From Candidatus Electrothrix yaqonensis (lineage in GTDB: Bacteria > Desulfobacterota > Desulfobulbia > Desulfobulbales > Desulfobulbaceae): a stretch of DNA of 32,000 nucleotides. The notes under the pieces were generated by a model. The model did no database searches and had not been told where the DNA came from. It saw nothing but the letters and a program-made list of their open reading frames with translations. The DNA is taken from contig CP178758.1 of the NCBI GenBank assembly GCA_047651235.1, positions 3,706,688-3,738,687 of the forward strand. The letters run 5' to 3'. Position numbers and translations under genes: made by a program. Positions 1 through 12,502 of this stretch are shown piece by piece (positions within the stretch are counted from its first letter, which is position 1; every line of letters starts with the position of its first letter).

Positions 1-1513
1 TCTGCGGCGGCAGGTTCCAATACGGTGACCCTGACCTTTGATGCGGTGGTGAATGCGCCGACCGGCACGGCGGACGAGTATCTGAATTCGGCCCAGATCA
101 CGGCTTCGGACCAGTACGATCCGGATTCCGATCCGGATTCGGACGAAAACACGGACGATCTCGGCGACGGTCTTCCGGACGACGACGAGGATACGGCGGC
201 GGTGATGCCGGAGAGCGCGGATCTGAGCCTGGTCAAGGTGGTGAACGATACAACGCCTGCCGTGGGCGACACGGTGACCTTCAGCCTGACCCTGACCAAC
301 GACGGGCCGGACACGGCCACGAATGTTGCGGTGACGGACGTTCTTCCGGGCGGTTATACCTATGTTTCCGGGAGCATGAGCGGCGGGGACGGGCAGGATC
401 AGAGCGGCGATCCGACCCTGGTGTGGACGGTGAACAGTCTGTCTGCGGCGGCAGGTTCCAATACGGTGACCCTGACCTTTGATGCGGTGGTGAATGCGCC
501 GACCGGCACGGCGGACGAGTATCTGAATTCGGCCCAGATCACGGCTTCGGACCAGTACGATCCGGATTCCGATCCGGATTCGGACGAAAACACGGACGAT
601 CTCGGCGACGGTCTTCCGGACGACGACGAGGATACGGCGGCGGTGATGCCGGAGAGCGCGGATCTGAGCCTGGTCAAGGTGGTGAACGATACAACGCCTG
701 CCGTGGGCGACACGGTGACCTTCAGCCTGACCCTGACCAACGACGGGCCGGACACGGCCACGAATGTTGCGGTGACGGACGTTCTTCCGGGCGGTTATAC
801 CTATGTTTCCGGGAGCATGAGCGGCGGGGACGGGCAGGATCAGAGCGGCGATCCGACCCTGGTGTGGACGGTGAACAGTCTGTCTGCGGCGGCAGGTTCC
901 AATACGGTGACCCTGACCTTTGATGCGGTGGTGAATGCGCCGACCGGCACGGCGGACGAGTATCTGAATTCGGCCCAGATCACGGCTTCGGACCAGTACG
1001 ATCCGGATTCCGATCCGGATTCGGACGAAAACACGGACGATCTCGGCGACGGTCTTCCGGACGACGACGAGGATACGGCGGCGGTGATGCCGGAGAGCGC
1101 GGATCTGAGCCTGGTCAAGGTGGTGAACGATACAACGCCTGCCGTGGGCGACACGGTGACCTTCAGCCTGACCCTGACCAACGACGGGCCGGACACGGCC
1201 ACGAATGTTGCGGTGACGGACGTTCTTCCGGGCGGTTATACCTATGTTTCCGGGAGCATGAGCGGCGGGGACGGGCAGGATCAGAGCGGCGATCCGACCC
1301 TGGTGTGGACGGTGAACAGTCTGTCTGCGGCGGCAGGTTCCAATACGGTGACCCTGACCTTTGATGCGGTGGTGAATGCGCCGACCGGCACGGCGGACGA
1401 GTATCTGAATTCGGCCCAGATCACGGCTTCGGACCAGTACGATCCGGATTCCGATCCGGATTCGGACGAAAACACGGACGATCTCGGCGACGGTCTTCCG
1501 GACGACGACGAGG
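1..1513 (+). repeat. Perfect in-frame tandem repeat with a 441-bp (147-aa) period. At least 3.4 copies are visible, and the array continues upstream of the window.
   Basis: The unit starting tctgcggcggcaggttccaatacggtgaccctgacc recurs at nt 1, 442, 883 and 1324. The translated copies are identical. Identity ends near 1513, where ...gacgacgacgagga is followed by caatgtc instead of tacggcg. Confidence 0.95.
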
Positions 1514-4488
1514 ACAATGTCTGTGTGACCCTTGCCTCCCTGCAACTGATCAAGCAGGTGGATCTGACCACGGATACTGCTCCGGAAGATGCAAGCAAGG
1601 ACGATATCATAACCTACACATTCAGGGTGCGGAATACCGGTGCTGAAACGCTGACGGACGTGACTGTAAGCGACCCGCTGCTCACCGGCTTGAGCTGTGA
1701 TCCCATTCTTTCCCTTGCCCCGGGTACAACGGTGGACTTCAACTGTACAGGGGGCAACACGTATACGATTACGCAGCTAGATGTGGATAATGGCTATATC
1801 GACAACACGGCTACAGCCACGGGAACGCCGCCGTGCGGGCCTGATGTGACCTCTTCCGTCGTAGCCCGCGTGAATATCGGCACTACTCCGACCTATGCCG
1901 TAGTGAGTTCATTCAGTGCGTATTTAAATGATAAAAATCAGGTGGTGCTGGAATGGAAGACCTCCAGTGAAACCGGTACGGTCGGTTTCATGCTGGAGCG
2001 GCAGAATGAGCGGACCGGCAGATATCAGCCGGTCACGAAAAAAATACTGCCCGGTATGCTGACTCCGCCGCACGGCGGCATCTACCGCCTTGTGGATACA
2101 AGAGCAAAAGCGGGTAAGCAATATACCTACCGGGTTGTCGAAGTAGCGGCCAACGATCAGGGCACGGTTTCCGGGCCGTACACGGTGCAGGCCGATGAAC
2201 CTCTGCCGAAGAACAGCCGGATGTTTTCCGGCGGGGCCGGAGGCTACACCCTGACGCATCATAAATTTTCCGGCAGACAGTTCAGGCGTTTTACAGCCCG
2301 CAGTAAAGTGCTCCGTAAATTCGCTGCAAAGCGGAAAAACAGGGCCGGTACCGTGCTGAAGATTCCGGTCTCCCGGAACGGTTTGGTGTATTTGAGCGCT
2401 GCGGAGCTGGCAGCCGCCTCCGACCTTCCGGAGAAGCGGGTGATCAGGCAGGTGAAGTCCGGAAGATGCCGGCTGACCCTGGCAGGGAAGGCTGTTCCGC
2501 TGCTCAGGGCCAATACCGGTTCCGACCTCTGGTTCTACGGCCGGGCTCCGGAGCGGAGCGACATCGGACAGAATATCTACCTTCTCGATTTCGGGAAAAA
2601 AGGCAAGAAAATGAAGAGTACGCGGGGCCGGGCAAAGAAGGAAGTCTCTGCGGAGCAGTCCTACCCCGCCCGTGTGCGTGCAGAGGAGAATCTGCACCCC
2701 TTCCACCTGTATATCAATACTCCGGTGCATGATTTCTGGGCCTGGGAACTCCTGTTCGCTCATGATGCCGCCGATGATCCGGCGGGCAGTACTGCTGTTC
2801 ATCCTGTTGCCGCGCCGTATCTGACAGGGGAGGGCGATGCGGCGGTTACGGTCAACTTGGTCGGAATGACAGGCCGTGGACCTGCCGGAGTGCCGCTGTA
2901 CAAGGTGACAGTCTTTCTGAACGGCACGGATATCGGCACGGCGGAATGGTCGGAAAAGGGCGACTATCAGTTCCGGGCCGATATCCCGGCTGCTCTGCTG
3001 CGTGAGGAGGGCAATGAAGTACAGGTCGTTTCGCAGCTGAACAGCGGCGTGACCTACTCGCTGATCTACCTAGACTCCATTGAGCTGGAGTATCTGCGCA
3101 GCTACGAGGCGGTCGATGGAGAGCTGACCTTTTCCGACGCCGGATATGACAGCGTGACGGTCCGGGGGTTCAGCAGCAGCAAGGTGCTGGCCCTTGATGT
3201 GACAACGCCGGATGCGCCTCGGCGGGTACGGACCCTGCCCGGTAAAAATCAGGCCGGAGAATATACGGTCACTCTGCTGACCGAGCCGGGGCATACGTAC
3301 TTTGTCACGGAAAATCTCAGCCCTGTCTTTGCCGGAGAGCTGAGTGCGGACACGCCGTCGCGGCTGCGCAGGCGCTATAACCGGGCTGATTATCTGATCA
3401 TTGCGCCGTTGCATCTGATGGAGTCGGCACAGCGGCTTGCTGATCACCGGGCATCTGAAGGCCTGAAGGTCATGCTTGTCGATATCGAGGATGTGCAGGA
3501 TGAATTCAGCCACAGCCTGGCGGCTCCTGAAGCGGTGCATGACTTCCTGTCCTATGTCTATACAAACTGGATTCAGGTGCCCCCGCATGTGGCTCTGGTC
3601 GGTGCCGGATCCTATGATTATAAAAACTACCTTGGTTACGGCTATCCCCTTGTGCCGGCCAAGCTGGCAGCAACCCCTGACGGTTTCTTCCCGTCCGACA
3701 ATGTCCTGGCGGATGTTGTCGGCAATGACGGGGTGCCTGAATTTGCGATAGGTCGGATACCTGCGGTGGACAGCACCGAGCTTGACCGCTATACTGAAAA
3801 ACTGATACACTTTGAACAGGATCAGGCGGAACGCGACACCGGTACGGTAATGACGCTGGTGACGGATATGCCTGATCCGTCTGCCGGAGATTTTGCGGCC
3901 GGTGCGGACAGAGTTGCGGAACTGGTGTCGGCACAGGGAGTTGCGGTCAACCGGCTTGCCGCAGATGCGCTGGGTGTGAACGGGACGCATGACGGGATTA
4001 TCAATGCGCTGCAGCAGGGAGGCGGCATTCTGCATTATATCGGTCACAGCTCGATGGTGGCCCTGGGCCGGAGCAGTGCGCTGCTCACTGCAGATGAAGT
4101 TGACGCCATGCCCGATATCGGTGTGCCTATGCTGATGGTCAGCATGACCTGCTCTGCCGGGGCCTTCGGCTATCCGCCCATGGACAGTATCGGCGAGACC
4201 GCAGTGCTGCGGGCGGACGGAGCAGCGGTGGGCTTTTTCGGGGCCTCCGGTCTGTCCGAAAACCATCTTGCCGACATAATGGCGAAAGGCTTCTACCGCA
4301 GCCTGTTTGATCCGGAGAATGTGAACCCGAGGATCGGCGATGCAGTTGTCGGCGCGAAACAGTATTATTCTGCTCAGGGCGGGGAACGGTCCGTTCTGGA
4401 TATTTACAATCTGCTCGGTGATCCGGCACTGCACGGGCCGGTTGCAGTACCGGACAATAAACCAACGGACAAGATCAGGACGGATTGA
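1..4488 (+). CDS. Large secreted/surface protein, 5'-truncated by the window edge. It contains tandem DUF11-type (conserved repeat domain) modules with Asp-rich thrombospondin-type-3-like inserts, an Fn3-like domain, and a C-terminal peptidase C25 (gingipain-like) domain.
   Basis: Frame 1 is open from nt 1 to TGA 4486-4488, so the M at nt 25 in the ORF track is a caller artefact. LVKVVNDTTPAVGDTVTFSLTLTNDGPDTATNVAVTDVLPGGYTYV is a DUF11-type signature. DPDSDPDSDENTDDLGDGLPDDDED is TSP3-like. The C-terminal part (ADYLIIAP...GRIPA...HYIGHSS...SMTCSAG) fits the C25 His/Cys dyad context. Confidence 0.85.
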   Translation, partial: SAAAGSNTVTLTFDAVVNAPTGTADEYLNSAQITASDQYDPDSDPDSDENTDDLGDGLPDDDEDTAAVMPESADLSLVKVVNDTTPAVGDTVTFSLTLTNDGPDTATNVAVTDVLPGGYTYVSGSMSGGDGQDQSGDPTLVWTVNSLSAAAGSNTVTLTFDAVVNAPTGTADEYLNSAQITASDQYDPDSDPDSDENTDDLGDGLPDDDEDTAAVMPESADLSLVKVVNDTTPAVGDTVTFSLTLTNDGPDTATNVAVTDVLPGGYTYVSGSMSGGDGQDQSGDPTLVWTVNSLSAAAGSNTVTLTFDAVVNAPTGTADEYLNSAQITASDQYDPDSDPDSDENTDDLGDGLPDDDEDTAAVMPESADLSLVKVVNDTTPAVGDTVTFSLTLTNDGPDTATNVAVTDVLPGGYTYVSGSMSGGDGQDQSGDPTLVWTVNSLSAAAGSNTVTLTFDAVVNAPTGTADEYLNSAQITASDQYDPDSDPDSDENTDDLGDGLPDDDEDNVCVTLASLQLIKQVDLTTDTAPEDASKDDIITYTFRVRNTGAETLTDVTVSDPLLTGLSCDPILSLAPGTTVDFNCTGGNTYTITQLDVDNGYIDNTATATGTPPCGPDVTSSVVARVNIGTTPTYAVVSSFSAYLNDKNQVVLEWKTSSETGTVGFMLERQNERTGRYQPVTKKILPGMLTPPHGGIYRLVDTRAKAGKQYTYRVVEVAANDQGTVSGPYTVQADEPLPKNSRMFSGGAGGYTLTHHKFSGRQFRRFTARSKVLRKFAAKRKNRAGTVLKIPVSRNGLVYLSAAELAAASDLPEKRVIRQVKSGRCRLTLAGKAVPLLRANTGSDLWFYGRAPERSDIGQNIYLLDFGKKGKKMKSTRGRAKKEVSAEQSYPARVRAEENLHPFHLYINTPVHDFWAWELLFAHDAADDPAGSTAVHPVAAPYLTGEGDAAVTVNLVGMTGRGPAGVPLYKVTVFLNGTDIGTAEWSEKGDYQFRADIPAALLREEGNEVQVVSQLNSGVTYSLIYLDSIELEYLRSYEAVDGELTFSDAGYDSVTVRGFSSSKVLALDVTTPDAPRRVRTLPGKNQAGEYTVTLLTEPGHTYFVTENLSPVFAGELSADTPSRLRRRYNRADYLIIAPLHLMESAQRLADHRASEGLKVMLVDIEDVQDEFSHSLAAPEAVHDFLSYVYTNWIQVPPHVALVGAGSYDYKNYLGYGYPLVPAKLAATPDGFFPSDNVLADVVGNDGVPEFAIGRIPAVDSTELDRYTEKLIHFEQDQAERDTGTVMTLVTDMPDPSAGDFAAGADRVAELVSAQGVAVNRLAADALGVNGTHDGIINALQQGGGILHYIGHSSMVALGRSSALLTADEVDAMPDIGVPMLMVSMTCSAGAFGYPPMDSIGETAVLRADGAAVGFFGASGLSENHLADIMAKGFYRSLFDPENVNPRIGDAVVGAKQYYSAQGGERSVLDIYNLLGDPALHGPVAVPDNKPTDKIRTD

Positions 4489-4784
4489 TGGTGCAGCTCG
4501 ATAGTATTTACAGACAGGCCGACAATATCGTCACCCGCAGGATTATGGATGAAACCCTGCTGGTGCCCGTTTCCGGTGAGCTTGCCTCCATGGAGGAACT
4601 GTATACCCTCAATGAGACCGGGGATTTCATATGGCAGGCGTTGGACGGCGTTCGTCCTCTTTCCGAGATCAGGTGCCAGCTTGAAGAGCAGTATGACGCA
4701 CCGGCAGAGGAGATTGAAGCGGATCTGCTGGAAATCATAAGCGGGCTGGCCGATGCCGGGCTGGTTACTTCTGTTGGAGGATGA
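4488..4784 (+). CDS. PqqD-family protein (RiPP recognition element / peptide chaperone)
   Basis: About 98 aa, and the motif run IVTRRIMDETLLVPVSG...LYTLNETGDFIWQALDG..PLSEI...L.EQYDAP.EEIEADLLEII..L...GLV is typical PqqD architecture. ATG 4488 overlaps the upstream stop (TGATG), with an alternative TTG at 4485. Its stop overlaps the rSAM start (ATGA at 4781-4784). Confidence 0.85.
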   Translation: MVQLDSIYRQADNIVTRRIMDETLLVPVSGELASMEELYTLNETGDFIWQALDGVRPLSEIRCQLEEQYDAPAEEIEADLLEIISGLADAGLVTSVGG

Positions 4785-5941
4785 CGACTTTGGAAACAGA
4801 CTGCACCGGCAGAGAACCTGATAATTCTGATGATCTGGCTCGTTATTTTGCCAGAGCTGCGCAGGCGAGGACACCGCTGGCTGCTACGTTCGAGCTGACC
4901 CGGCGGTGCAACTTCCGTTGTGTCCACTGTTATCTTGGTGATCAGCAGGCAATTCGTCAGCATCGCCATCAGGAACTGGACACGGACAGCGTTATCAGGC
5001 TGCTTGATGAGATGGTGGAGGCCGGAACCCTGTTTCTTACCCTGACCGGAGGGGACCCCATGCTGCGGCCTGATTTTGTCAGGATTTACGCACATGCGGT
5101 CCGCATCGGTCTGTTGGTTTCAGTGTATTGCAACGGCTCACTGATCACAGAGGAGATTACAGAGGTATTTGTTCAATATCCTCCAAGGATCGCTGAAATT
5201 ACTTTGTACGGTGCAACCCGGAAGACCTTTGAGACGATAACACAGCGCCGGGGGAGCTATGCAGACTGCATGAAAGGTATTGCTCTGCTGCACAGGGCAA
5301 AGGTGCGGCTGCGGCTGAAATCCATGGCCATGACGCTGAATTACGAAGAACTGCCTGCCATGCGGAAGATAGCCGGGGATTTGGGCCTGTCATTTCGGCA
5401 TGACTGCTCCGTCATTCCCGCTCTTCCTCATGAAGATAATGGCAGTCGGATAAACATTCGGGATACCGGAAAAAACGGCCTGCGGGAGACCTTGGGTTTC
5501 CGCCTTGAACCTGAGCAGGCTGCGGCAGTGGATTTCGGGGCAGCCGAAGTAAAGAAAAAACTGCAGGAGCTGACGGCTGAGAAAGGAGCTGCTGCAGAGC
5601 CGTCAACAAAATTGTACCAGTGCGGGGCAGGGCAGGCATCATACCATATTACCTCGTACGGCAGAATGCAGCCCTGTCTCATCACGCTTCGGCCTTCTGT
5701 TGATCTCGTCGCCGGGGAACAGCGAATTGCAGACGGTTGGAATACGTTGTGCGCACAGGTTGAGGAACAGACAGTAACAACTGATTTTCCCTGTATCGAA
5801 TGCAAGGACAGCAAGTTATGTACGGGCTGCCCAAGCAGATTCTTTAGAGAAACAGGCTCGCCGGAGGAACCGCCTTCCTTTTATTGTCATTATGCGGCAT
5901 GCCGCAGGCGAGGAAGCTCAAAGGAAACAGGGCTTCAATAA
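4781..5941 (+). CDS. Radical SAM enzyme with a C-terminal SPASM-like Cys-rich domain (peptide-modifying maturase type)
   Basis: Contains the CNFRCVHCY (CxxxCxxC) cluster motif, then LTLTGGDPMLRPD (SAM-binding GGE-like motif). C-terminal Cys clusters are YQCGAGQASYHITSYGRMQPC and CIECKDSKLCTGCPSRF...YCHYAAC. Translationally coupled to the PqqD gene. Confidence 0.85.
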   Translation: MTTLETDCTGREPDNSDDLARYFARAAQARTPLAATFELTRRCNFRCVHCYLGDQQAIRQHRHQELDTDSVIRLLDEMVEAGTLFLTLTGGDPMLRPDFVRIYAHAVRIGLLVSVYCNGSLITEEITEVFVQYPPRIAEITLYGATRKTFETITQRRGSYADCMKGIALLHRAKVRLRLKSMAMTLNYEELPAMRKIAGDLGLSFRHDCSVIPALPHEDNGSRINIRDTGKNGLRETLGFRLEPEQAAAVDFGAAEVKKKLQELTAEKGAAAEPSTKLYQCGAGQASYHITSYGRMQPCLITLRPSVDLVAGEQRIADGWNTLCAQVEEQTVTTDFPCIECKDSKLCTGCPSRFFRETGSPEEPPSFYCHYAACRRRGSSKETGLQ

Positions 5942-6040: not shown

Positions 6041-6229
6041 ATGAAAGAACAACAACACGGCACAGCTCCTGTTAAGCAGCAGGAGGAGACCGAAGGAATC
6101 GTGCAGAAACAGCCTTATGAAAAACCCCGGCTTGACAGGGTGAAATTATTTGCCGATCAGGTCTTGGCTTCCTGTTCAGGGGGGGCAATGGCTCCTCCAT
6201 GCGGCATTTTTGACCCTCTTGCATCATAA
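6041..6229 (+). CDS. Candidate RiPP precursor peptide (62 aa)
   Basis: The ORF is ATG to TAA: MKEQQHGTAPVKQQEETEGIVQKQPYEKPRLDRVKLFADQVLASCSGGAMAPPCGIFDPLAS. It has a hydrophilic leader with YEKPRL (YxxPxL), a V-L-A site before a Gly/Cys/Pro-rich tail with 2 Cys, and a C-terminal Ser. It lies between the rSAM and kinase genes. No strong SD is visible, so the call rests on context. Confidence 0.6.
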   Translation: MKEQQHGTAPVKQQEETEGIVQKQPYEKPRLDRVKLFADQVLASCSGGAMAPPCGIFDPLAS

Positions 6230-6239
6230 CAGGCTTGAT

Positions 6240-7175
6240 TTGAGCAACGCAGGGCATCCTGTTGTAGACAGCGTATACAGTATAGGGGGGGTATTTGTTA
6301 CGCTTAACTCGGAACGTTATCTGGTGCCGGAAGACTCTTCCGCTGCAGAGAACAGTGTCTTTGTTTATCCTGCAACTGCAGAATATGCAGCTGCTTCAGC
6401 TGCAGTCCCCTGTATTTATGTATATATAGCTGCTTTACAGCAGAGATCTTCTCCAGCAGTAGGCGAAAAAATATTTTCTCAGCAGCGGGCATGTCTCTAC
6501 AGGGCTGAAAACGGCTACATCCAACAGTATTATCTGGATGATAAAAAACAGGAGATCCTCTGGAAACTCGCAATTGACCATGAGTTTTCCCGGTTTAACT
6601 ATTTTCTCTGCGCAGATAAGGTTAACCGGGAGGAGTCGGTCCGGCTTGATCCCTGGAAACTGGCATCCACTCTTTTTCTCTTGCAGCACAGTTTTATCAA
6701 TCACCAGGGCCTGATCATTCACGCTGCCGGAGGCTCTGTTTCCGGGAAAGGGCTGGTCTTTTCCGCTCCTTCCGGCACCGGAAAATCCACCCTCAGCAGG
6801 CTGTTGCTGCACTCTCCGGATAACCGGCTTTTCAGTGAAGAGCGTCTGATCATCCGCTCTGTTGAGAACAAGTGGCAGGTATGGGGAACCCCCTGGCATG
6901 GGGAAGGGAACATTGCCCGAAATGAATCCGCCCCGCTCTCCGCGCTGGTTTTTCTCCGACAGGCCCAGAAAACAGAAATTACCCGACTGTCTCCGGCGGA
7001 CGGGCTGCACCGGCTGGTGCAGACAGCGTCCATTCCTTGGTACAGTAAGCAATGGACAGAAAAAGGGCTTGCTCTCTGTGAACGATTGATTCAGGATATC
7101 CCGATCTTCGAGCTTGCCTTCCGGCCGGACCGGACTGCAGTGCAGGCTGTGGAGCGTCTTGCAGCGGAGTTGTAA
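6240..7175 (+). CDS. HPr kinase C-terminal-domain-like P-loop kinase (HprK-related kinase family)
   Basis: GLIIHAAGGSVSGKGLVFSAPSGTGKSTLSRLL resembles the HprK G.SG.GKSE P-loop region. The size and the PqqD-neighbour context are as in HprK-related kinase families. The start is uncertain. The ORF track begins at TTG 6150, overlapping the peptide ORF. TTG 6240 is the first start after the peptide stop. Confidence 0.75.
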   Translation: MSNAGHPVVDSVYSIGGVFVTLNSERYLVPEDSSAAENSVFVYPATAEYAAASAAVPCIYVYIAALQQRSSPAVGEKIFSQQRACLYRAENGYIQQYYLDDKKQEILWKLAIDHEFSRFNYFLCADKVNREESVRLDPWKLASTLFLLQHSFINHQGLIIHAAGGSVSGKGLVFSAPSGTGKSTLSRLLLHSPDNRLFSEERLIIRSVENKWQVWGTPWHGEGNIARNESAPLSALVFLRQAQKTEITRLSPADGLHRLVQTASIPWYSKQWTEKGLALCERLIQDIPIFELAFRPDRTAVQAVERLAAEL

Positions 7176-7210
7176 ATTCTAAACTCAACGGAAAAGTGAG
7201 GCAGGGGCGT

Positions 7211-7780
7211 ATGGAACACAATTTTTTTCTGCTGCGGATATTTTTTCCTCTCTTCCTGTTCTGCTTTTCTCCGGTTGCAGCAGCAACAGAACTGCTCTCA
7301 GAGTCATTTTCCGCCTGTGAACTCCCTGAAAACTGGGAAGTGGAAAATCTTGGCGGTGACTGTCGCTGGATATTTGACAGCAACAGGCAGAACGAGACCG
7401 GCGGAGAGGGTTGTTATGCGATGGCCAGCAGTGAGGACTGCAGTTCAGGGACAAGCATGGATACAGTACTTTTCGTTTCTCCTGTTGACTGCTCCAGGTT
7501 GACAGAAACAACTCTTTCTTTTCAATACGATGCGTATGAACAGCTGAATGCCAGCACCTTTGCTGTAGAAATTTCTCTTGACGAAGGAAACGACTGGTCT
7601 CAAATCTGGGTTAGAAACCAGTCCGATCCCGGACCAAAAACAGCTGTCTTGGATATCAGCGCAGAAGCAGACAGGCGACCTTCCGTGTTGATCCGGTTTC
7701 GCTATACAGCTTCTGCAAAGGATTGGTGGTGGCAGGTTGATGATGTACAAATTTCCGGCAAGAAAGGAAAGAACAGGTGA
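7211..7780 (+). CDS. Small secreted protein with a choice-of-anchor-J / MAM-like beta-sandwich domain
   Basis: GAGG lies 9 nt upstream of ATG 7211. Signal peptide: MEHNFFLLRIFFPLFLFCFSPVAAATE. The body (LPENWEVENLGGDCRW...LSFQYDAY...FAVEISLDEGNDWSQIW...VLIRFRYTA...WWWQVDDVQI) follows the pattern of that domain class. The assignment is from memory of the family pattern only. Confidence 0.55.
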   Translation: MEHNFFLLRIFFPLFLFCFSPVAAATELLSESFSACELPENWEVENLGGDCRWIFDSNRQNETGGEGCYAMASSEDCSSGTSMDTVLFVSPVDCSRLTETTLSFQYDAYEQLNASTFAVEISLDEGNDWSQIWVRNQSDPGPKTAVLDISAEADRRPSVLIRFRYTASAKDWWWQVDDVQISGKKGKNR

Positions 7781-7829
7781 ACTGGCTCCTTTTTCTGCCT
7801 GCGATGATCAGTCGGCAACAGCAGCCTCT

Positions 7830-8306
7830 ATGAGTGTGTCATCCGTTATCAGTATCCGGGATCAGGGTGCGCTTGATCTGGTACGCTCTCTGCTGAAACA
7901 GGGAATATCTGTCCGCATCCGGGTTTCCGGCAGCTCTATGCGGCCGCTGCTCAGCGGTGGAGAAATCATTGAAGTGGCTCCCCCTGCAGCCCGATCACCC
8001 AAAATTGGGGAGATCCTTTTGTTCTATGATCAGCAGGGGAACCCGCTCGTTCATCGCCTGATCAGACGTCGTTGTTGCAACAAGGTCCTTTATCTGCAGA
8101 CCAAGGGTGATGCCTGCGCAGGTTGTGATGGTTTTATTCCGGCAGGGCAGGTTCTCGGCCGTGTTCAGCGTATCATTATCAAGCATAATACTATTGATCT
8201 GCAGCACCCGGTCATGCATTTTCGTTCCTTCTTTATTGCTCTCCGAAGTCTGATATTGTATTATTATCTGCAGTTCTGCAATAGACTGTCTTCTGCATCT
8301 GATTAA
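7830..8306 (+). CDS. S26-family signal peptidase I, ER/archaeal (SipW-like) type
   Basis: VSGSSMRPLLSGGEIIEV carries the catalytic Ser motif (GxSMxP). GNPLVHRLIRR carries the conserved His of Ser/His-type S26B enzymes. There is a C-terminal hydrophobic segment, FFIALRSLILYYYLQF. Alternative starts at 7737, 7740 and 7743 would overlap the preceding gene. Confidence 0.7.
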   Translation: MSVSSVISIRDQGALDLVRSLLKQGISVRIRVSGSSMRPLLSGGEIIEVAPPAARSPKIGEILLFYDQQGNPLVHRLIRRRCCNKVLYLQTKGDACAGCDGFIPAGQVLGRVQRIIIKHNTIDLQHPVMHFRSFFIALRSLILYYYLQFCNRLSSASD

Positions 8307-8585
8307 GTATCAAATTACAGCCGGTCTTTTTGTAAATAGCTGGCCGAATATAATTGATAGCTCCAGCTTGACTACCGAACCTCTTTTTCAGCATTTTTAC
8401 AGCGCCAGAAGTCTCGGTTATTAGGGTGGACTGCTTGTTCCAAGGTCTTCCCACAACAGTTTCAGAAGAGCGAATTACATGCGGTAAGACACCCTCCTCT
8501 CCTTCTACAATTTACAACCAGCTTTATTTCCGTTATAATTTCATATTAGAGGAGCTTGAAAATTATTCGAGACAGGGAGGAAAAA

Positions 8586-9344
8586 ATGAAAAGTCCGTCG
8601 TTCATAAACTGCAATGTAATATTTTTGACTGTTCTGCTGACTGTCTGTTTTTGGGGGACGACAGCCGCCGAAGCGCAGACCGGTTCTATAAAAGGTTATG
8701 CGAAAGATAAGGACAGTGGGGACGGTATACCGAATATACATGTGCGGGTATGCATTGATCCATGCCTTAAGCAGAGCGATTGGATTACCGAGGCAGAAGA
8801 TACACAGACGGAACCTGTCGGATACTATGAAGTGACGGGACTTCCTGCAGGAACATATAAAGTGAGATATCTCACGTATAGCATTGATACTCCTTCGTAT
8901 GTGGCTCAATGGTACAACAGCTTGGATTATGCTGATGCTGAAGATGTAGATGTTAAAACCGATCAGGCTGTTAGCCTGGACGATGTGCTGCTTGAGCAGG
9001 GTGTAAGCATTACAGGGACGGTGACAGATGCCGACTTTGCCCCTATTGCAGAGGTGAGAGTATATGCGTACAAGGAAGGTGACAGGGATAACTGGGTGGC
9101 CTCTGCTATAATAACTGAACCGGACACAAATTACACTCTTTCCGGTTTGGCTCCGGGGATCAACTATAAAATATATTTTATGGCCGACGGGTATATCAGC
9201 GAGTGGTATGATGATAAACGCGGTTCTGTCGAATCGGTTCCTGCCGGTGCTGCTGATGTTCTTAGCGGCACTACCGATATCGATACTGTCCTGAATAAAC
9301 GAGTATCTCTTGTGCCGGTATATTATCTGCTGTTACTGAAGTAG
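8586..9344 (+). CDS. Secreted protein with repeated carboxypeptidase-regulatory-like (CarboxypepD_reg) beta-sandwich domains
   Basis: A strong SD (GGGAGG) precedes ATG 8586. Signal peptide: MKSPSFINCNVIFLTVLLTVCFWGTTAAEAQ. Two modules are visible: GSIKGYAKDKDSGDGIPNIHVRV...YYEVTGLPAGTYKVRY and ITGTVTDADFAPIAEVRVYAY...NYTLSGLAPGINYKIYF. Confidence 0.7.
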   Translation: MKSPSFINCNVIFLTVLLTVCFWGTTAAEAQTGSIKGYAKDKDSGDGIPNIHVRVCIDPCLKQSDWITEAEDTQTEPVGYYEVTGLPAGTYKVRYLTYSIDTPSYVAQWYNSLDYADAEDVDVKTDQAVSLDDVLLEQGVSITGTVTDADFAPIAEVRVYAYKEGDRDNWVASAIITEPDTNYTLSGLAPGINYKIYFMADGYISEWYDDKRGSVESVPAGAADVLSGTTDIDTVLNKRVSLVPVYYLLLLK

Positions 9345-9495: not shown

Positions 9496-10463
9496 TAAGT
9501 CTATAACTGATGTTACGCATTGGCGCCAAATATATTATCTTGGAGGCAATGAATACAAAATATATTGACCTCTACACGGATTATCTTGCCGTGACGTTCG
9601 GATACGCCACGGCAACCGGCCTGTCGGACATGCTGCGGATGGCGAGTATACCTCTATGGATTTATGGAAACAGGTCAGACCGGTCATCCGCGAAGTGGAA
9701 GCCGATGACGGTGTGCTGATATTCGACGATACCATTCAGGAAAAACCGTGAATGGATGAAAATGACCTTATCTGTCGGCATTCTGATCACTGTAAATGGA
9801 AAAACGCCAAAAGAATCAGTCTACTGAACTGCGTTTATCATGTCGATTGGCTTGAGCTGCTGCGTTCAATGGTTAATACTTGTATGAGGAACCGACTGCG
9901 GTTTACCCGGATTCTGTCTGATTCATGGTTCAACTCTGTTGAAAATATGGAGCATATCGAACTCGGACATAACAAGGAGTTCATCGGTGCATTGAAAAAC
10001 AACCGACTCGTCGCGTTGACTGAGGAAGACCGTAAAAACAAAAACCGTATAGATCAGATCAAATGGTCAGAACAGGAAGCCGTTATCGGTTGGCTGAAAG
10101 GACTGAAGTTTCCAGTTCGTCTCGCCCGGCAGATCTTTACAAACAAAGACGGAAGCACCGGCATCCTGTATCTCGCCTGCAGCCAAGTTTACGACAATCT
10201 ATAGAAAACGATGGAAAGTCGAGGTGTTTCACAAGTCATTGAAGTCGAATGCGGCGTTATCCAAGTCTCCTGCGCGCCGTGTAAATGCGCAGGGCAATCA
10301 TATTTTTGCCTCCATTGTTGCTGTGTTTAAAATGGAATGCCTAAAAATCAAAACAAAGATGAACCACTTTGCCCTGAAGTCGAAGCTCTATCTGAAAGCC
10401 GTCCGTTCAGCATTTGATGAGCTTCAGAAACTCAGGACTGCGTAACATCAGTTGTTAACTTAT
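9496..10463 (+). mobile_element. Decayed IS4/IS701-superfamily insertion sequence with a frameshifted, internally deleted DDE transposase
   Basis: Terminal IRs match 22/25: ataagtctataactgatgttacgca (9496-9520) against the reverse complement of tgcgtaacatcagttgttaacttat (10439-10463). Transposase fragments occur in three frames: LIFDDTIQEKP, DENDLICRHSDHC, ILSDSWFNSVENMEHI, and RKRWKVEVFHKSLKSNAALSKSP (a YxxRWxIExxFKxLK-type motif). Confidence 0.7.
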
Positions 10464-11738
10464 CGATCTTTTTTTCTGTCATTTACAGCACAGGTTTTCT
10501 CCGCAGGAGCTTCTTTGCTGCTTAATGTTATGATCGCTCGAATGTTGGGTGTCTCAGGAACAGGTCTTTTTTTTCAAGGTATGATGATTGCCGGTATCGG
10601 CTCTGCTGTTGCCCGCTTGGGGATGGATAATGTTATCACACGCTTTATAAGCGTTTATTTTTCCGAGAATGATTTTGACAACATGGTACGTGTTGTACGT
10701 ACCGGGCTGAAAGCAGGCTGTGCAGTGACTTTTGTTCTTTTCTTTCTGTATGCAACGGTCAGCCTGCTGACCCCTTTTTCTTCTTTTCAGTTTATGGTAT
10801 TATCCATACCATTTCTGACTTTTTCAGCTATATATTCCTCGGCGTTGCGCGGCATCGGAAAAGCAGTATTGTTTACCCTTATACAGAGAGGTTTCGTCCC
10901 GACTGTCTTTATCCTGCTCTTACTTGTTCATAATGTTTTACAGCAGGAAATGATTCCGGAAAAAAGTTTTCAGCTTTATTTCGTGGCATCTTTGTTGGTC
11001 GCAATATTTTCCTGGGCTCTATGGAGATTTTTTTTATCAGGTCGCGATTCAAATTCAGCAAAGCATTTCAGCTCAGATCATTTTACCTGGACTACCCTCT
11101 GGCAGGGAGGAGTTCAGCATACCTATGTGGTCTCTCTCCTGAACTTGGCTGTATTTCCTTGGGCAGGTATTTTCTTTCTCGGAATATTTTCCAGTCCTGA
11201 ACAAGTTGGTCTTTACGGAGTTGCTTGGCGTCTGGCAACTCAATTATCTTTAATCCTGATCGCTTCAGGAAACGTAGCTGCACCTGAATTTGCGAAACTC
11301 CATGCACAGGGGAAAATACGGCAACTTGAAGCAGCTATCCGAAAAACCTCACTGACTGTTCTGCTTGTTTCTGCCGTTTCGGCCTGTATAATGATAGGTG
11401 CCCACCGGGAAATCCTTGCTTTGTTCGGAAAAAAATTCATAACAGCTTCTGGTGTTTTTTTTATCATATTGACAGGACACATAATCCGCTCCTCTGCAGG
11501 GAATACAGGAATGCTGCTCATGATGACAGGACACGAGCGGGAGGTGAAAAAAACGCTTCTTATCTCGTCATCAGTTCTGATTTGCTGTACCATTCTGCTT
11601 AGTTGGATATGGGGGGCGCCGGGAGCAGCTTGGGCCAATACGATTGCTTTGAGTGTACAGAGCGGTTGTCTTATCTACTATTGTATTGCAATTCTTCATG
11701 TAACCCCGCTTCCTTATTGGAAATATATATCTCCTTAA
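10452..11738 (+). CDS. Polysaccharide biosynthesis flippase (Wzx / MOP superfamily). The native 5' end is displaced by the IS.
   Basis: A 428-aa polytopic membrane protein. The N-terminal ...LLLNVMIARMLGVSGTGLFF and the late ...LLMMTGHEREV... region are typical of Wzx/PST-family proteins. The only upstream in-frame start is TTG 10452, which lies inside the IS terminal repeat. The first ATG codon is codon 27. Confidence 0.7.
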   Translation: MLTYRSFFLSFTAQVFSAGASLLLNVMIARMLGVSGTGLFFQGMMIAGIGSAVARLGMDNVITRFISVYFSENDFDNMVRVVRTGLKAGCAVTFVLFFLYATVSLLTPFSSFQFMVLSIPFLTFSAIYSSALRGIGKAVLFTLIQRGFVPTVFILLLLVHNVLQQEMIPEKSFQLYFVASLLVAIFSWALWRFFLSGRDSNSAKHFSSDHFTWTTLWQGGVQHTYVVSLLNLAVFPWAGIFFLGIFSSPEQVGLYGVAWRLATQLSLILIASGNVAAPEFAKLHAQGKIRQLEAAIRKTSLTVLLVSAVSACIMIGAHREILALFGKKFITASGVFFIILTGHIIRSSAGNTGMLLMMTGHEREVKKTLLISSSVLICCTILLSWIWGAPGAAWANTIALSVQSGCLIYYCIAILHVTPLPYWKYISP

Positions 11739-11761
11739 AAAGATTCTGCTCACAGGATTAT

Positions 11762-12502
11762 ATGTACCTCTCAGATACTACAGATATAATAATTAAACCG
11801 GTACGTTTATTTGAAAAAGAATTTACATTTATCCTTGATAAGGAAATTAAAGATATTGTAAAAAATATTAACGATAAAACATTATGGATCGTCACCTTTA
11901 ATTTTCAAATGCTTGGGAAATGTAGTGAGGATGAAGGATATTTATCGTTACTCTCGTCAGCTGATCTTTTTACATGTGATGGAGCTCCTATTGCGTGGAT
12001 TGTTACTTTTCTCACGAGATATAAAGTTCCTCGTATTACAGGAATACAAATAGTAGAATATATAATAAAGAATACAACCAAATCTTTTGGTATTATTGGA
12101 GGAAGATCACATACAGCAGCACTTTCCAATATGAAAGTGGATTTTAGTCGAGTTCTATTTATTTTTAACGGAGATATTAATCACAATTCTAATAAGACAA
12201 TAAGTAATTTCGCAGATTCTATCAAAGCAACAAAACCAGAATATGTTTTTGTTGCACTCGGAATAGAAAAACAGGATATTGTATGTAAATATTTAAAAGA
12301 AACTGGAGTTAAATCGATTTATATAGGAGTTGGAGGTACGTTTGAAATATTAGCTGGTGAGCAAAAAAGAGCTCCAGAATGGATTTCAATTATAGGAATA
12401 GAATGGTTCTTCAGATTTATTCAAGAACCAAGAAGATTATTTAAACGATATTTTATAGATTACCCTAGAGGCATTTATTTTTATCTAAAAAATCGTCTTT
12501 AA
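11762..12502 (+). CDS. WecB/TagA/CpsF-family glycosyltransferase (GT26)
   Basis: About 246 aa from ATG 11762. Motifs are DLFTCDGAPIAW, FVALGIEKQDIV, and APEWISIIGIEWFFRFIQEPRRLFKRYF (the family C-terminal signature). The longer ORF from 11603 overlaps the wzx end and is GC-shifted. Confidence 0.75.
   Translation: MYLSDTTDIIIKPVRLFEKEFTFILDKEIKDIVKNINDKTLWIVTFNFQMLGKCSEDEGYLSLLSSADLFTCDGAPIAWIVTFLTRYKVPRITGIQIVEYIIKNTTKSFGIIGGRSHTAALSNMKVDFSRVLFIFNGDINHNSNKTISNFADSIKATKPEYVFVALGIEKQDIVCKYLKETGVKSIYIGVGGTFEILAGEQKRAPEWISIIGIEWFFRFIQEPRRLFKRYFIDYPRGIYFYLKNRL

Follow-up and report, generated by a model that had tools for sequence, protein, structure and literature searches.

We describe here a short gene on the forward strand of a 32,000-nucleotide stretch of the genome of Candidatus Electrothrix yaqonensis (contig CP178758.1, positions 3,706,688 to 3,738,687; hereafter 'the window', numbered from its first base), together with the cassette in which the gene resides. 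The gene encodes a peptide of 62 residues, and the cassette comprises, in this order, genes for a giant surface protein ending in a C25 peptidase domain, a stand-alone PqqD-family protein, a radical S-adenosylmethionine (rSAM) enzyme with a SPASM domain, the peptide itself, a ScmC-type kinase and, usually, an S26-like peptidase (Table 1). A previous reading of the window from its sequence alone (the sequence-only reading) had proposed that a precursor-like peptide is encoded beside the PqqD, rSAM and kinase genes, and this proposal is borne out by the conservation of the open reading frame (ORF) in cable bacteria and beyond. The ORF is a real gene under purifying selection, and we consider it likely that it encodes the precursor of an as yet uncharacterised peptide which is made by the ribosome and modified after translation (RiPP), produced by a conserved cassette.

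Table 1. Features of the cassette and its surroundings in window coordinates (columns: feature, position, strand, details or evidence)
Giant repeat-rich surface-protein gene, 3' part	25..4488	+	four DUF11/CLIPPER repeats, C-terminal Peptidase_C25
Stand-alone PqqD-family protein, putative RiPP recognition element (RRE)	4485..4784	+	Pfam PF05402, 1.1e-16
rSAM/SPASM maturase (predicted)	4781..5941	+	PF04055, 3.3e-22
Peptide gene, probable RiPP precursor	6041..6229	+	62 aa + stop; conservation, profile matches, codon-position entropy
Conserved leader motif Y26-E-K-P-R-L-D-R-V-K-L-F-A-D-Q-V-L42	6116..6166	+	lasso-type; 17-residue span, in-register alignment
Hypervariable core A43..S62	6167..6226	+	C45 6173-6175, C54 6200-6202, C-terminal S62 6224-6226
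ScmC-family (PF27840) HPr-kinase-like P-loop kinase	6240..7175	+	311 aa, TTG start; NCBI call P0003, homologue N-termini
Secreted choice-of-anchor J domain protein	7196..7780	+	NCBIfam NF038128, 1.9e-10, above cut-off
S26/S24-like serine peptidase (SipW/archaeal type), candidate leader peptidase	7737..8306	+	TIGR02228, SM-x-P, HR, GDA motifs
Secreted protein, CarboxypepD_reg/SdrD_B domains	8556..9344	+	Pfam PF13620, 6e-16
Flippase	10452..11738		polysaccharide-biosynthesis block
WecG/TagA glycosyltransferase	11603..12502		polysaccharide-biosynthesis block

The peptide family, its leader and its core

The translation of the gene, MKEQQHGTAPVKQQEETEGIVQKQPYEKPRLDRVKLFADQVLASCSGGAMAPPCGIFDPLAS, is identical to the peptide of the sequence-only reading and contains a YEKPRL motif, a V-L-A tripeptide followed by 19 further residues, two Cys, one Asp and a terminal Ser. 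An identical protein is on record (P0001, hypothetical protein ACL93V_17170 of the cable bacterium Candidatus Electrothrix sp. YB6), and a protein with 87% identity (P0002) is found in the same rSAM-peptide-kinase order. It had been supposed that automated annotation could miss the peptide; NCBI in fact annotates both this gene and that of the adjacent kinase (ACL93V_17175). The start at ATG 6041 is backed by the MKEQ N-terminus which the homologues share. Across 17 leader codons in 25 gene copies, the nucleotide entropy amounts to 0.88, 0.54 and 1.53 at codon positions 1, 2 and 3, respectively, a pattern which indicates that the plus-strand frame is translated and under purifying selection. 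An ORF on the minus strand (6072..6257) is ruled out as a real gene, since the codon-position entropy matches the plus-strand frame. Most homologues exhibit a Shine-Dalgarno-like GGAG or GAGG 6–12 nt upstream of the start, and in the window a weak GGA is the only such element.

When the peptide was used as a single sequence in a protein search, it matched only itself and one close relative, and the family surfaced only with a profile built from syntenic loci. The locus scan was a genome search with an alignment of 15 kinase sequences, all from cable bacteria, and yielded 15 loci, 14 of which are from Electrothrix, Electronema or Desulfobulbaceae metagenome-assembled genomes (MAGs). An ORF of 50–63 residues is located directly upstream of the kinase gene in 13 of these 14 cable-bacterial loci; in the fourteenth (L015, Candidatus Electrothrix laxa) the peptide is likewise present, and is separated from the kinase gene by an inserted, transposase-like ORF of 583 residues (L015:3220-4971) which splits the cassette. 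Behind the rSAM gene, a homologous ORF of this size is encountered in all 14 cable-bacterial loci and in five loci of other lineages exhibiting the cassette order (L017, L019-L022), of which one is from a Gammaproteobacteria MAG, one from an Acidobacteriota MAG and three are from metagenome contigs. Every cable-bacterial locus that was recovered, from both genera, possesses the cassette.

The profile of 16 syntenic peptides retrieved 93 distinct relatives of 50–80 residues in a word-index search, with E-values down to 1.7e-21, and a full hidden Markov model (HMM) search of 1.84 billion cluster representatives identified 474 clusters (at 50% identity) with E <= 1e-3. One protein matching the peptide profile at 1e-10, P0224 (1823 residues with ~20 PYKSPDIEGISL repeats), is an unrelated repeat protein and was rejected as a false positive; proteins of this type are worth excluding when genomes are mined with the leader motif. 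No named precursor family was matched in scans of NCBIfam and Pfam with the window peptide and of NCBIfam with nine relatives. UniProt automatically names one relative simply "RiPP", and a full-text literature search, which omitted most subscription journals, did not reveal a paper describing the system.

The number and arrangement of precursor genes vary among the loci. E. gigas has a tandem pair of divergent copies (L004:4563-4736 and 4817-4969), Electronema-type loci (L006/L007/L010/L011/L012) contain, between the PqqD and rSAM genes, one more precursor gene whose product has a short C-x3-5-C loop, and one Desulfobulbaceae MAG carries two precursors (L008; 2711-2887 and 4791-4967) and two kinases. 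In P0122 (268 residues, encoded on a metagenomic contig of 1016 nt) a precursor-like N-terminus (…PYERPQLGSIRLFADQVLGHCRFIAPCMPIAPIKS) is fused to the kinase, which probably results from an error in sequencing or gene calling or from the loss of a stop codon.

The leader consensus of the family is K-x2-Y-E-K-P-x-L-x2-V-x-L-F-A-D-Q-V-L. The YxxPxL motif, to which the sequence-only reading had drawn attention, is invariant in the relatives, and K23, Y26, P29, L36, A38, D39, Q40 and the second Cys are invariant across 16 aligned syntenic peptides. Without any insertion or deletion, the stretch from this Tyr to the Leu that ends Q-V-L measures exactly 17 residues in each of the 93 relatives. If the leader is cut after L42, YxxPxL falls at positions -17..-12, which is the span that it occupies in lasso precursors (PMC10368454), and the leader reads Y-17, P-14, L-12, F-6, V-2 and L-1 in lasso numbering. 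The family HMM was scored against 36 lasso precursors from the supplement of the same study (PMC10368454) and against shuffled sequences: at least 5 bits were obtained for 16 of the 36 real precursors versus 2 of 3600 shuffles, and at least 4 bits for 19 of 36 versus 5 of 3600. The alignments are ungapped and in register, as exemplified by chaxapeptin, for which ...YEAPSLIEVGEFSEDTL followed by G aligns with ...YeKPrLkaVsLfADQVL followed by g of the family. At the position of the Thr(-2) of lasso precursors, the family has Val and rarely Thr, and Val/Ile(-2) variants are known among the phosphorylated lasso peptides (PMC10368454). As judged from these alignments, the likeness covers the whole leader from Y(-17) to L(-1) and is not confined to YxxPxL, and the lasso analogy is thus stronger than had been claimed.

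The register with the lasso leaders implies that the leader ends at L42 and that the core starts at A43 (Gly in most relatives). This is one residue upstream of the site between V-L-A and S which the sequence-only reading had assigned as an AXA-like signal peptidase site. That assignment holds in part: Val is present at -3 in about all members of the family, whereas the residue at -1 is small in only 73 of 93, and the Lys/Glu/Gln-rich leader is devoid of the hydrophobic core of a signal peptide. Since the proteases encoded here differ from the lasso B2 protease, cleavage after L42 and cleavage after A43 are both candidates.

Only the Cys residues and the terminal Ser are kept in the core, and the remainder is hypervariable in sequence, loop length and tail length. 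Q-V-L is followed by Gly in 52, Ala in 10 and Ser in 9 of the 93 relatives, and the first Cys is located two residues beyond this position in 75 of them. Two Cys, as noted in the sequence-only reading and invariant in the relatives, are present in 80 of 93 peptides and three in a further 12, with 5–10 residues in the loop between the Cys and 5–13 in the tail past the last one. The spacing in the window peptide is C-x8-C (C45, C54) and not C-x10-C as had been stated; when the small ORFs between rSAM and kinase homologues are aligned, as had been suggested, YxxPxL is indeed retained, as is the terminal Ser in most peptides, and the loop between the Cys varies in length. The peptides end in Ser in 84 of 93 cases, compared with 13.6% Ser among core residues overall, which substantiates the emphasis that had been placed on it. 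For another 115 representatives, the C-terminal residue is Ser in 78 and Thr in 8. Peptides from outside the cable bacteria follow the pattern ...YEKPxLxxIELxA[ED][EQ]VLxxGCK...C-x2-4-C...GS with three Cys. The hypervariability of the core, along with the multiple paralogues, points to a diversifying and probably extracellular product rather than to a cofactor.

Enzymes encoded around the peptide

The catalytic motifs of the cassette enzymes, including the rSAM enzyme, the kinase and the C25 peptidase, are intact. The start of the PqqD gene overlaps the stop of the C25 gene, and the encoded protein yields weak matches to the PqqD, lasso B1-type PqqD and ScmD models, all of which are under the respective cut-offs; it is 60–71% identical in 13 of the 14 cable-bacterial loci, the other one (L005) being cut off at a contig end. 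In the rSAM enzyme, the CX3CX2C motif (C43, C47, C50) and the seven-Cys SPASM motif (C281, C299, C338, C341, C347, C350, C369) are invariant in 16 orthologues. Its closest relatives of solved structure are SkfB (5.5e-22) and PqqE (2.9e-19), followed by CteB, and the nearest one, SkfB, is a thioether synthase.

The longest ORF in the frame of the kinase starts at TTG 6150, and the sequence-only reading had accordingly let the kinase overlap the peptide gene. However, the protein recorded by NCBI (ACL93V_17175, 311 residues) matches a start at TTG 6240, the N-termini of 24 aligned homologues begin just before a shared YSIGG motif, and no conserved residues are encoded in 6150..6239. With the start at TTG 6240, there is therefore no overlap, and ten bases separate the two genes. 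The membership of P0003 and its homologues in PF27840 (ScmC) is taken from precomputed annotation, the model being absent from the Pfam copy used for our own scan, and UniProt names an Electronema orthologue ScmC. A sequence search of the PDB with the kinase profile returned only generic P-loop matches, with HPrK at an E-value of 0.22. The AlphaFold2 model of the kinase (predicted local distance difference test score 92.4), in turn, matches PEPCK (E 5e-7) and HPrK/P (1knx, 1kkl, 1jb1; E ~2e-4) in Foldseek, and the modelled kinase has the P-loop fold of PEPCK and HPrK.

Lasso kinases depend on an essential His-Lys-Asp-Asp tetrad (PMC9266682). Among 110 homologues of the present kinase, H161 and K182 never vary and positions 200/201 are occupied by Asp or Glu throughout, with both acidic residues being Glu in the window kinase. 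The His-to-Lys spacing of 21 residues is that of PadeK and ThcoK, and the L-x-S-[DE]-[DE] segment aligns with these and other lasso kinases. Lasso kinases phosphorylate the linear precursor at its C-terminal Ser (PMC9266682), and the reaction is accelerated by the B1 chaperone (PMC10368454).

The C25 domain of the giant upstream protein is the most widely conserved protease partner of the peptide and had been overlooked in the sequence-only reading. Pfam identifies Peptidase_C25 (PF01364, 1.3e-65) and DUF11 (3.2e-80) in this protein; the C25 domain comprises residues 1123-1469 of the listed ORF (nt 3391-4431) and, when aligned to gingipain R, retains both the catalytic His (YIGHSS) and the catalytic Cys (MTCSAG). 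In all 14 cable-bacterial loci, and also in L017, L020, L021 and L022, the gene immediately before PqqD encodes a giant protein with C25 at its C-terminal end, whose N-terminal repeats vary in type by lineage (DUF11/CLIPPER, SdrD_B or Calx-beta). Since the frame is open from base 1, the gene runs past the left edge of the window and the ORF listed from GTG 25 is truncated; the N-terminus and signal peptide thus lie outside the window, and the homologue in L017 begins with a signal-peptide-like segment. At least three near-identical tandem DUF11/CLIPPER repeats of ~147 residues (TLTFDAVVNAPTGTADEY...SAAAGSNTV) extend from 25 to ~1800 on the plus strand and give rise to two antisense ORFs (399..761 and 840..1202) which are 100% identical to each other. 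Such near-perfect repeats suggest either a recent expansion or an assembly collapse.

The S26-like peptidase matches TIGR02228 with an E-value of 1.5e-10, at 41.2 bits compared with a cut-off of 51.85, and shares the SM-x-P, HR and GDA motifs with its homologues in L019, L020 and L021. It does not possess an N-terminal membrane anchor, and its true start is probably located downstream of 7737. The gene is present in 12 cable-bacterial loci and in three of the five distant ones (L019, L020, L021). In one of the latter, the S24-like peptidase gene is followed by an NTP_transf_5 (PF14907) gene (L020:7463-8629); a predicted nucleotidyltransferase accompanies the kinase in phosphorylated lasso clusters (PMC9266682, PMC10368454).

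Relation to known systems and a proposed pathway

Among known systems, the phosphorylated lasso peptides (paeninodin PadeA/PadeB1/PadeK, ThcoK, SyanK, BsfK) share with the present cassette the YxxPxL motif at -17..-12, F(-6), the Val(-2) variant seen in some of their precursors, a stand-alone PqqD-type RRE, a precursor ending in Ser, and an HPrK-like kinase with a His-Lys-acidic-acidic tetrad of the same spacing. In contrast to them, the cassette is devoid of a B2 protease, a lasso cyclase and a conserved Asp/Glu at core positions 7-9, and instead has an rSAM/SPASM enzyme, invariant Cys, a C25 protease and an S26-like peptidase. Neither a B2 protease nor a C macrolactam synthetase was found among the window ORFs, the neighbours in the cable-bacterial loci and the genes and Pfam domains tabulated for L017 and L019-L022. 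As the B2 protease, the C cyclase, Thr(-2) and a ring acceptor are all missing, the peptide, judged by its sequence and gene neighbourhood, is not a lasso peptide.

The SynChlorMet (SCM) system (ScmC/ScmD/ScmE/ScmF; TIGR04248-04251, PF27840) likewise combines an HPrK-like ScmC-family protein with a PqqD homologue and SPASM rSAM enzymes. However, the scores obtained here are far under the equivalog cut-offs (ScmC 34/125, ScmD 24.9/100, ScmE 61.9/400, ScmF 65.2/400), and the present cassette has one rSAM gene instead of two, plus the C25 and S26-like peptidases. According to its TIGRFAMs description, the SynChlorMet cassette is not known to have a precursor. Sactipeptides and ranthipeptides (SkfA/SkfB, CteA/CteB, PapA/PapB) have in common with the present system a SPASM rSAM maturase, Cys-containing cores and leader-guided modification. 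Their maturases carry the RRE as an N-terminal fusion, whereas here it is a separate PqqD protein; moreover, the cores described here contain only 2–3 Cys and no CxxxD-type repeats, and the present system has a kinase and a C-terminal Ser in addition. The pathways for pyrroloquinoline quinone (PQQ) and mycofactocin (PqqA/D/E; MftA/B/C) similarly employ a stand-alone PqqD-family chaperone and a SPASM rSAM enzyme acting on a short peptide, but have fixed cores and cofactor products, whereas the present core is hypervariable, with both PqqD and rSAM scoring under the cut-offs of these families. The system would thus appear to be a hybrid: leader, chaperone, kinase and C-terminal Ser are as in phosphorylated lasso peptides, while the core chemistry seems to resemble that of sactipeptides and ranthipeptides.

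These comparisons suggest a pathway in which the stand-alone PqqD protein would bind the YEKPxL leader in the manner of a lasso B1 protein and present the core to the rSAM/SPASM enzyme, which would most likely use the Cys thiols to build thioether bridges within the peptide, as in sactipeptides or ranthipeptides. The ScmC kinase may phosphorylate the C-terminal Ser, in analogy to PadeK and ThcoK acting on phosphorylated lasso peptides, and the leader could then be removed near the junction of Q-V-L with G/A, either by the soluble S26-like peptidase or, after export, by the surface C25 protease. Cleavage by C25 would parallel the action of NisP on nisin. The product may be secreted and diversifying, with a role in antagonism, signalling or kin recognition. 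It is quite possible, though we would stop short of calling it probable, that the peptide family founds a new RiPP class, in which a lasso-type leader/RRE/kinase module is recombined with a SPASM rSAM enzyme and a surface-anchored C25 protease to yield small thioether-bridged, C-terminally phosphorylated products, and that it may supply the missing substrate of ScmC/SynChlorMet-type systems.

Several observations weigh against this proposal. Every chemical step of the pathway is inferred. The rSAM enzyme scores above the cut-off of no characterised maturase family, and its top NCBIfam matches are generic (AhbD, NirJ), so that thioether formation is only the most likely guess. The acidic residues of the core, including the Asp that had been put forward as an acceptor in the sequence-only reading, are not positionally conserved, and the core has no conserved acceptor residue at all. 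The terminal Ser is missing from 9 of the 93 close relatives, about one quarter of the more distant ones end in neither Ser nor Thr, and the lasso kinase BsfK acts on an internal Ser (PMC10368454). In two of the five distant loci, the flanks that were read contain no S26-like gene, and ORF scans of the window and of the cable-bacterial loci revealed no transporter encoded in the cassette. The peptide would be cytoplasmic and the C25 protease extracellular, and the two would need a route by which to meet. Finally, a scan for promoters and terminators around the ORF found nothing convincing of its own; in the absence of an evident separate promoter or terminator, the peptide gene appears to lie inside an operon.

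The same precursor and cassette might also support a different chemistry: the Cys could form a disulfide or a metal site, the rSAM enzyme could catalyse C-C or C-O cross-linking, epimerisation or an MftC-like change of the C-terminus, or phospho-Ser could be an intermediate which is eliminated to dehydroalanine prior to the addition of Cys. The rSAM enzyme matches the MftC (1.1e-23) and PqqE (2.6e-15) models about as well as the sactisynthase models, PqqE is its second-closest solved structure, the stand-alone PqqD protein is reminiscent of the PQQ and mycofactocin systems, and a thioether acceptor is not conserved. We nonetheless consider such a chemistry rather unlikely, given that SkfB, the nearest relative of solved structure, is a thioether synthase, that Cys are the only invariant core residues, as is typical of sactipeptide and ranthipeptide substrates, and that the cassette lacks the lyase or cyclase which a lanthionine-type route would need. 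The resemblance to PQQ and mycofactocin architecture, taken together with the two invariant Cys, the lack of an exporter and the occurrence of the cassette in every recovered cable-bacterial locus of both genera, also brings to mind a precursor of the cell's own cofactor or metal ligand, for example a dithiol Ni/Fe ligand serving electron conduction in cable bacteria. Cofactor precursors, however, have fixed cores, whereas the core here varies in sequence, loop (5–10 residues) and tail length, some genomes harbour two or more divergent precursor copies, and the presence of the cassette in Acidobacteriota and Gammaproteobacteria MAGs, that is, in non-cable lineages, indicates that it is not specific for conduction; a cofactor or metal ligand is hence improbable.

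No feature of the neighbourhood is more constant than the tight tie to a C25-domain protein across phyla, which might indicate that the peptide is an unmodified small protein, for example a pro-peptide-like inhibitor or regulator of the adjacent protease. We find this very improbable: the ties to PqqD, rSAM and kinase genes are equally tight, the leader resembles lasso leaders which bind PqqD domains, and a hypervariable core behind a conserved leader is what marks a RiPP. Least credible of all, in our opinion, is a lasso precursor served by a cyclase and a B2 protease from another part of the genome. Such a precursor would account for the in-register lasso-type leader, for Gly, Ala or Ser at the residue aligned with lasso +1 in 71 of 93 relatives, and for the joint presence of a B1-like PqqD protein, a lasso-type kinase and the C-terminal Ser. 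Yet the 19 loci encode neither an asparagine-synthetase-like cyclase nor a transglutaminase-like protease and invariably have an rSAM/SPASM gene instead; the leader lacks Thr(-2), and Asp or Glu occurs at core positions 7-9 in only 22 of 93 relatives and not in the window peptide.

A precursor processed by the rSAM enzyme and the kinase, as preferred here, would provide a concrete substrate for a widespread but uncharacterised rSAM/PqqD/HPrK-like kinase cassette. The lasso leader, chaperone and kinase appear to be reused as a module with an unrelated core chemistry, which is of interest for our understanding of RiPP evolution and for engineering by leader swaps. Cable bacteria are uncultured in pure form and their secreted and cell-cell chemistry is essentially uncharted; the locus described here encodes a peptide which is conserved yet hypervariable in all cable bacteria sampled. 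For genome mining, Y-E-K-P-x-L-x5-F-A-D-Q-V-L, followed by G-x-C and a terminal Ser, may serve as a handle.

Flanking genes

The choice-of-anchor J protein encoded between the kinase and the S26-like peptidase is an accessory component with an N-terminal, signal-like hydrophobic segment. Its gene is found in L002-L004, L009 and L013-L015, all of which are Electrothrix-type loci, and is absent from the Electronema-type loci. Homologues of the secreted CarboxypepD_reg/SdrD_B protein are encoded downstream of the cassette in 11 cable-bacterial loci, and a downstream gene in L022 exhibits weak matches to the same domain families. Between the cassette and the polysaccharide-biosynthesis block, an ORF of 150 residues (9752..10204, plus strand) resembles, by eye, a transposase fragment.

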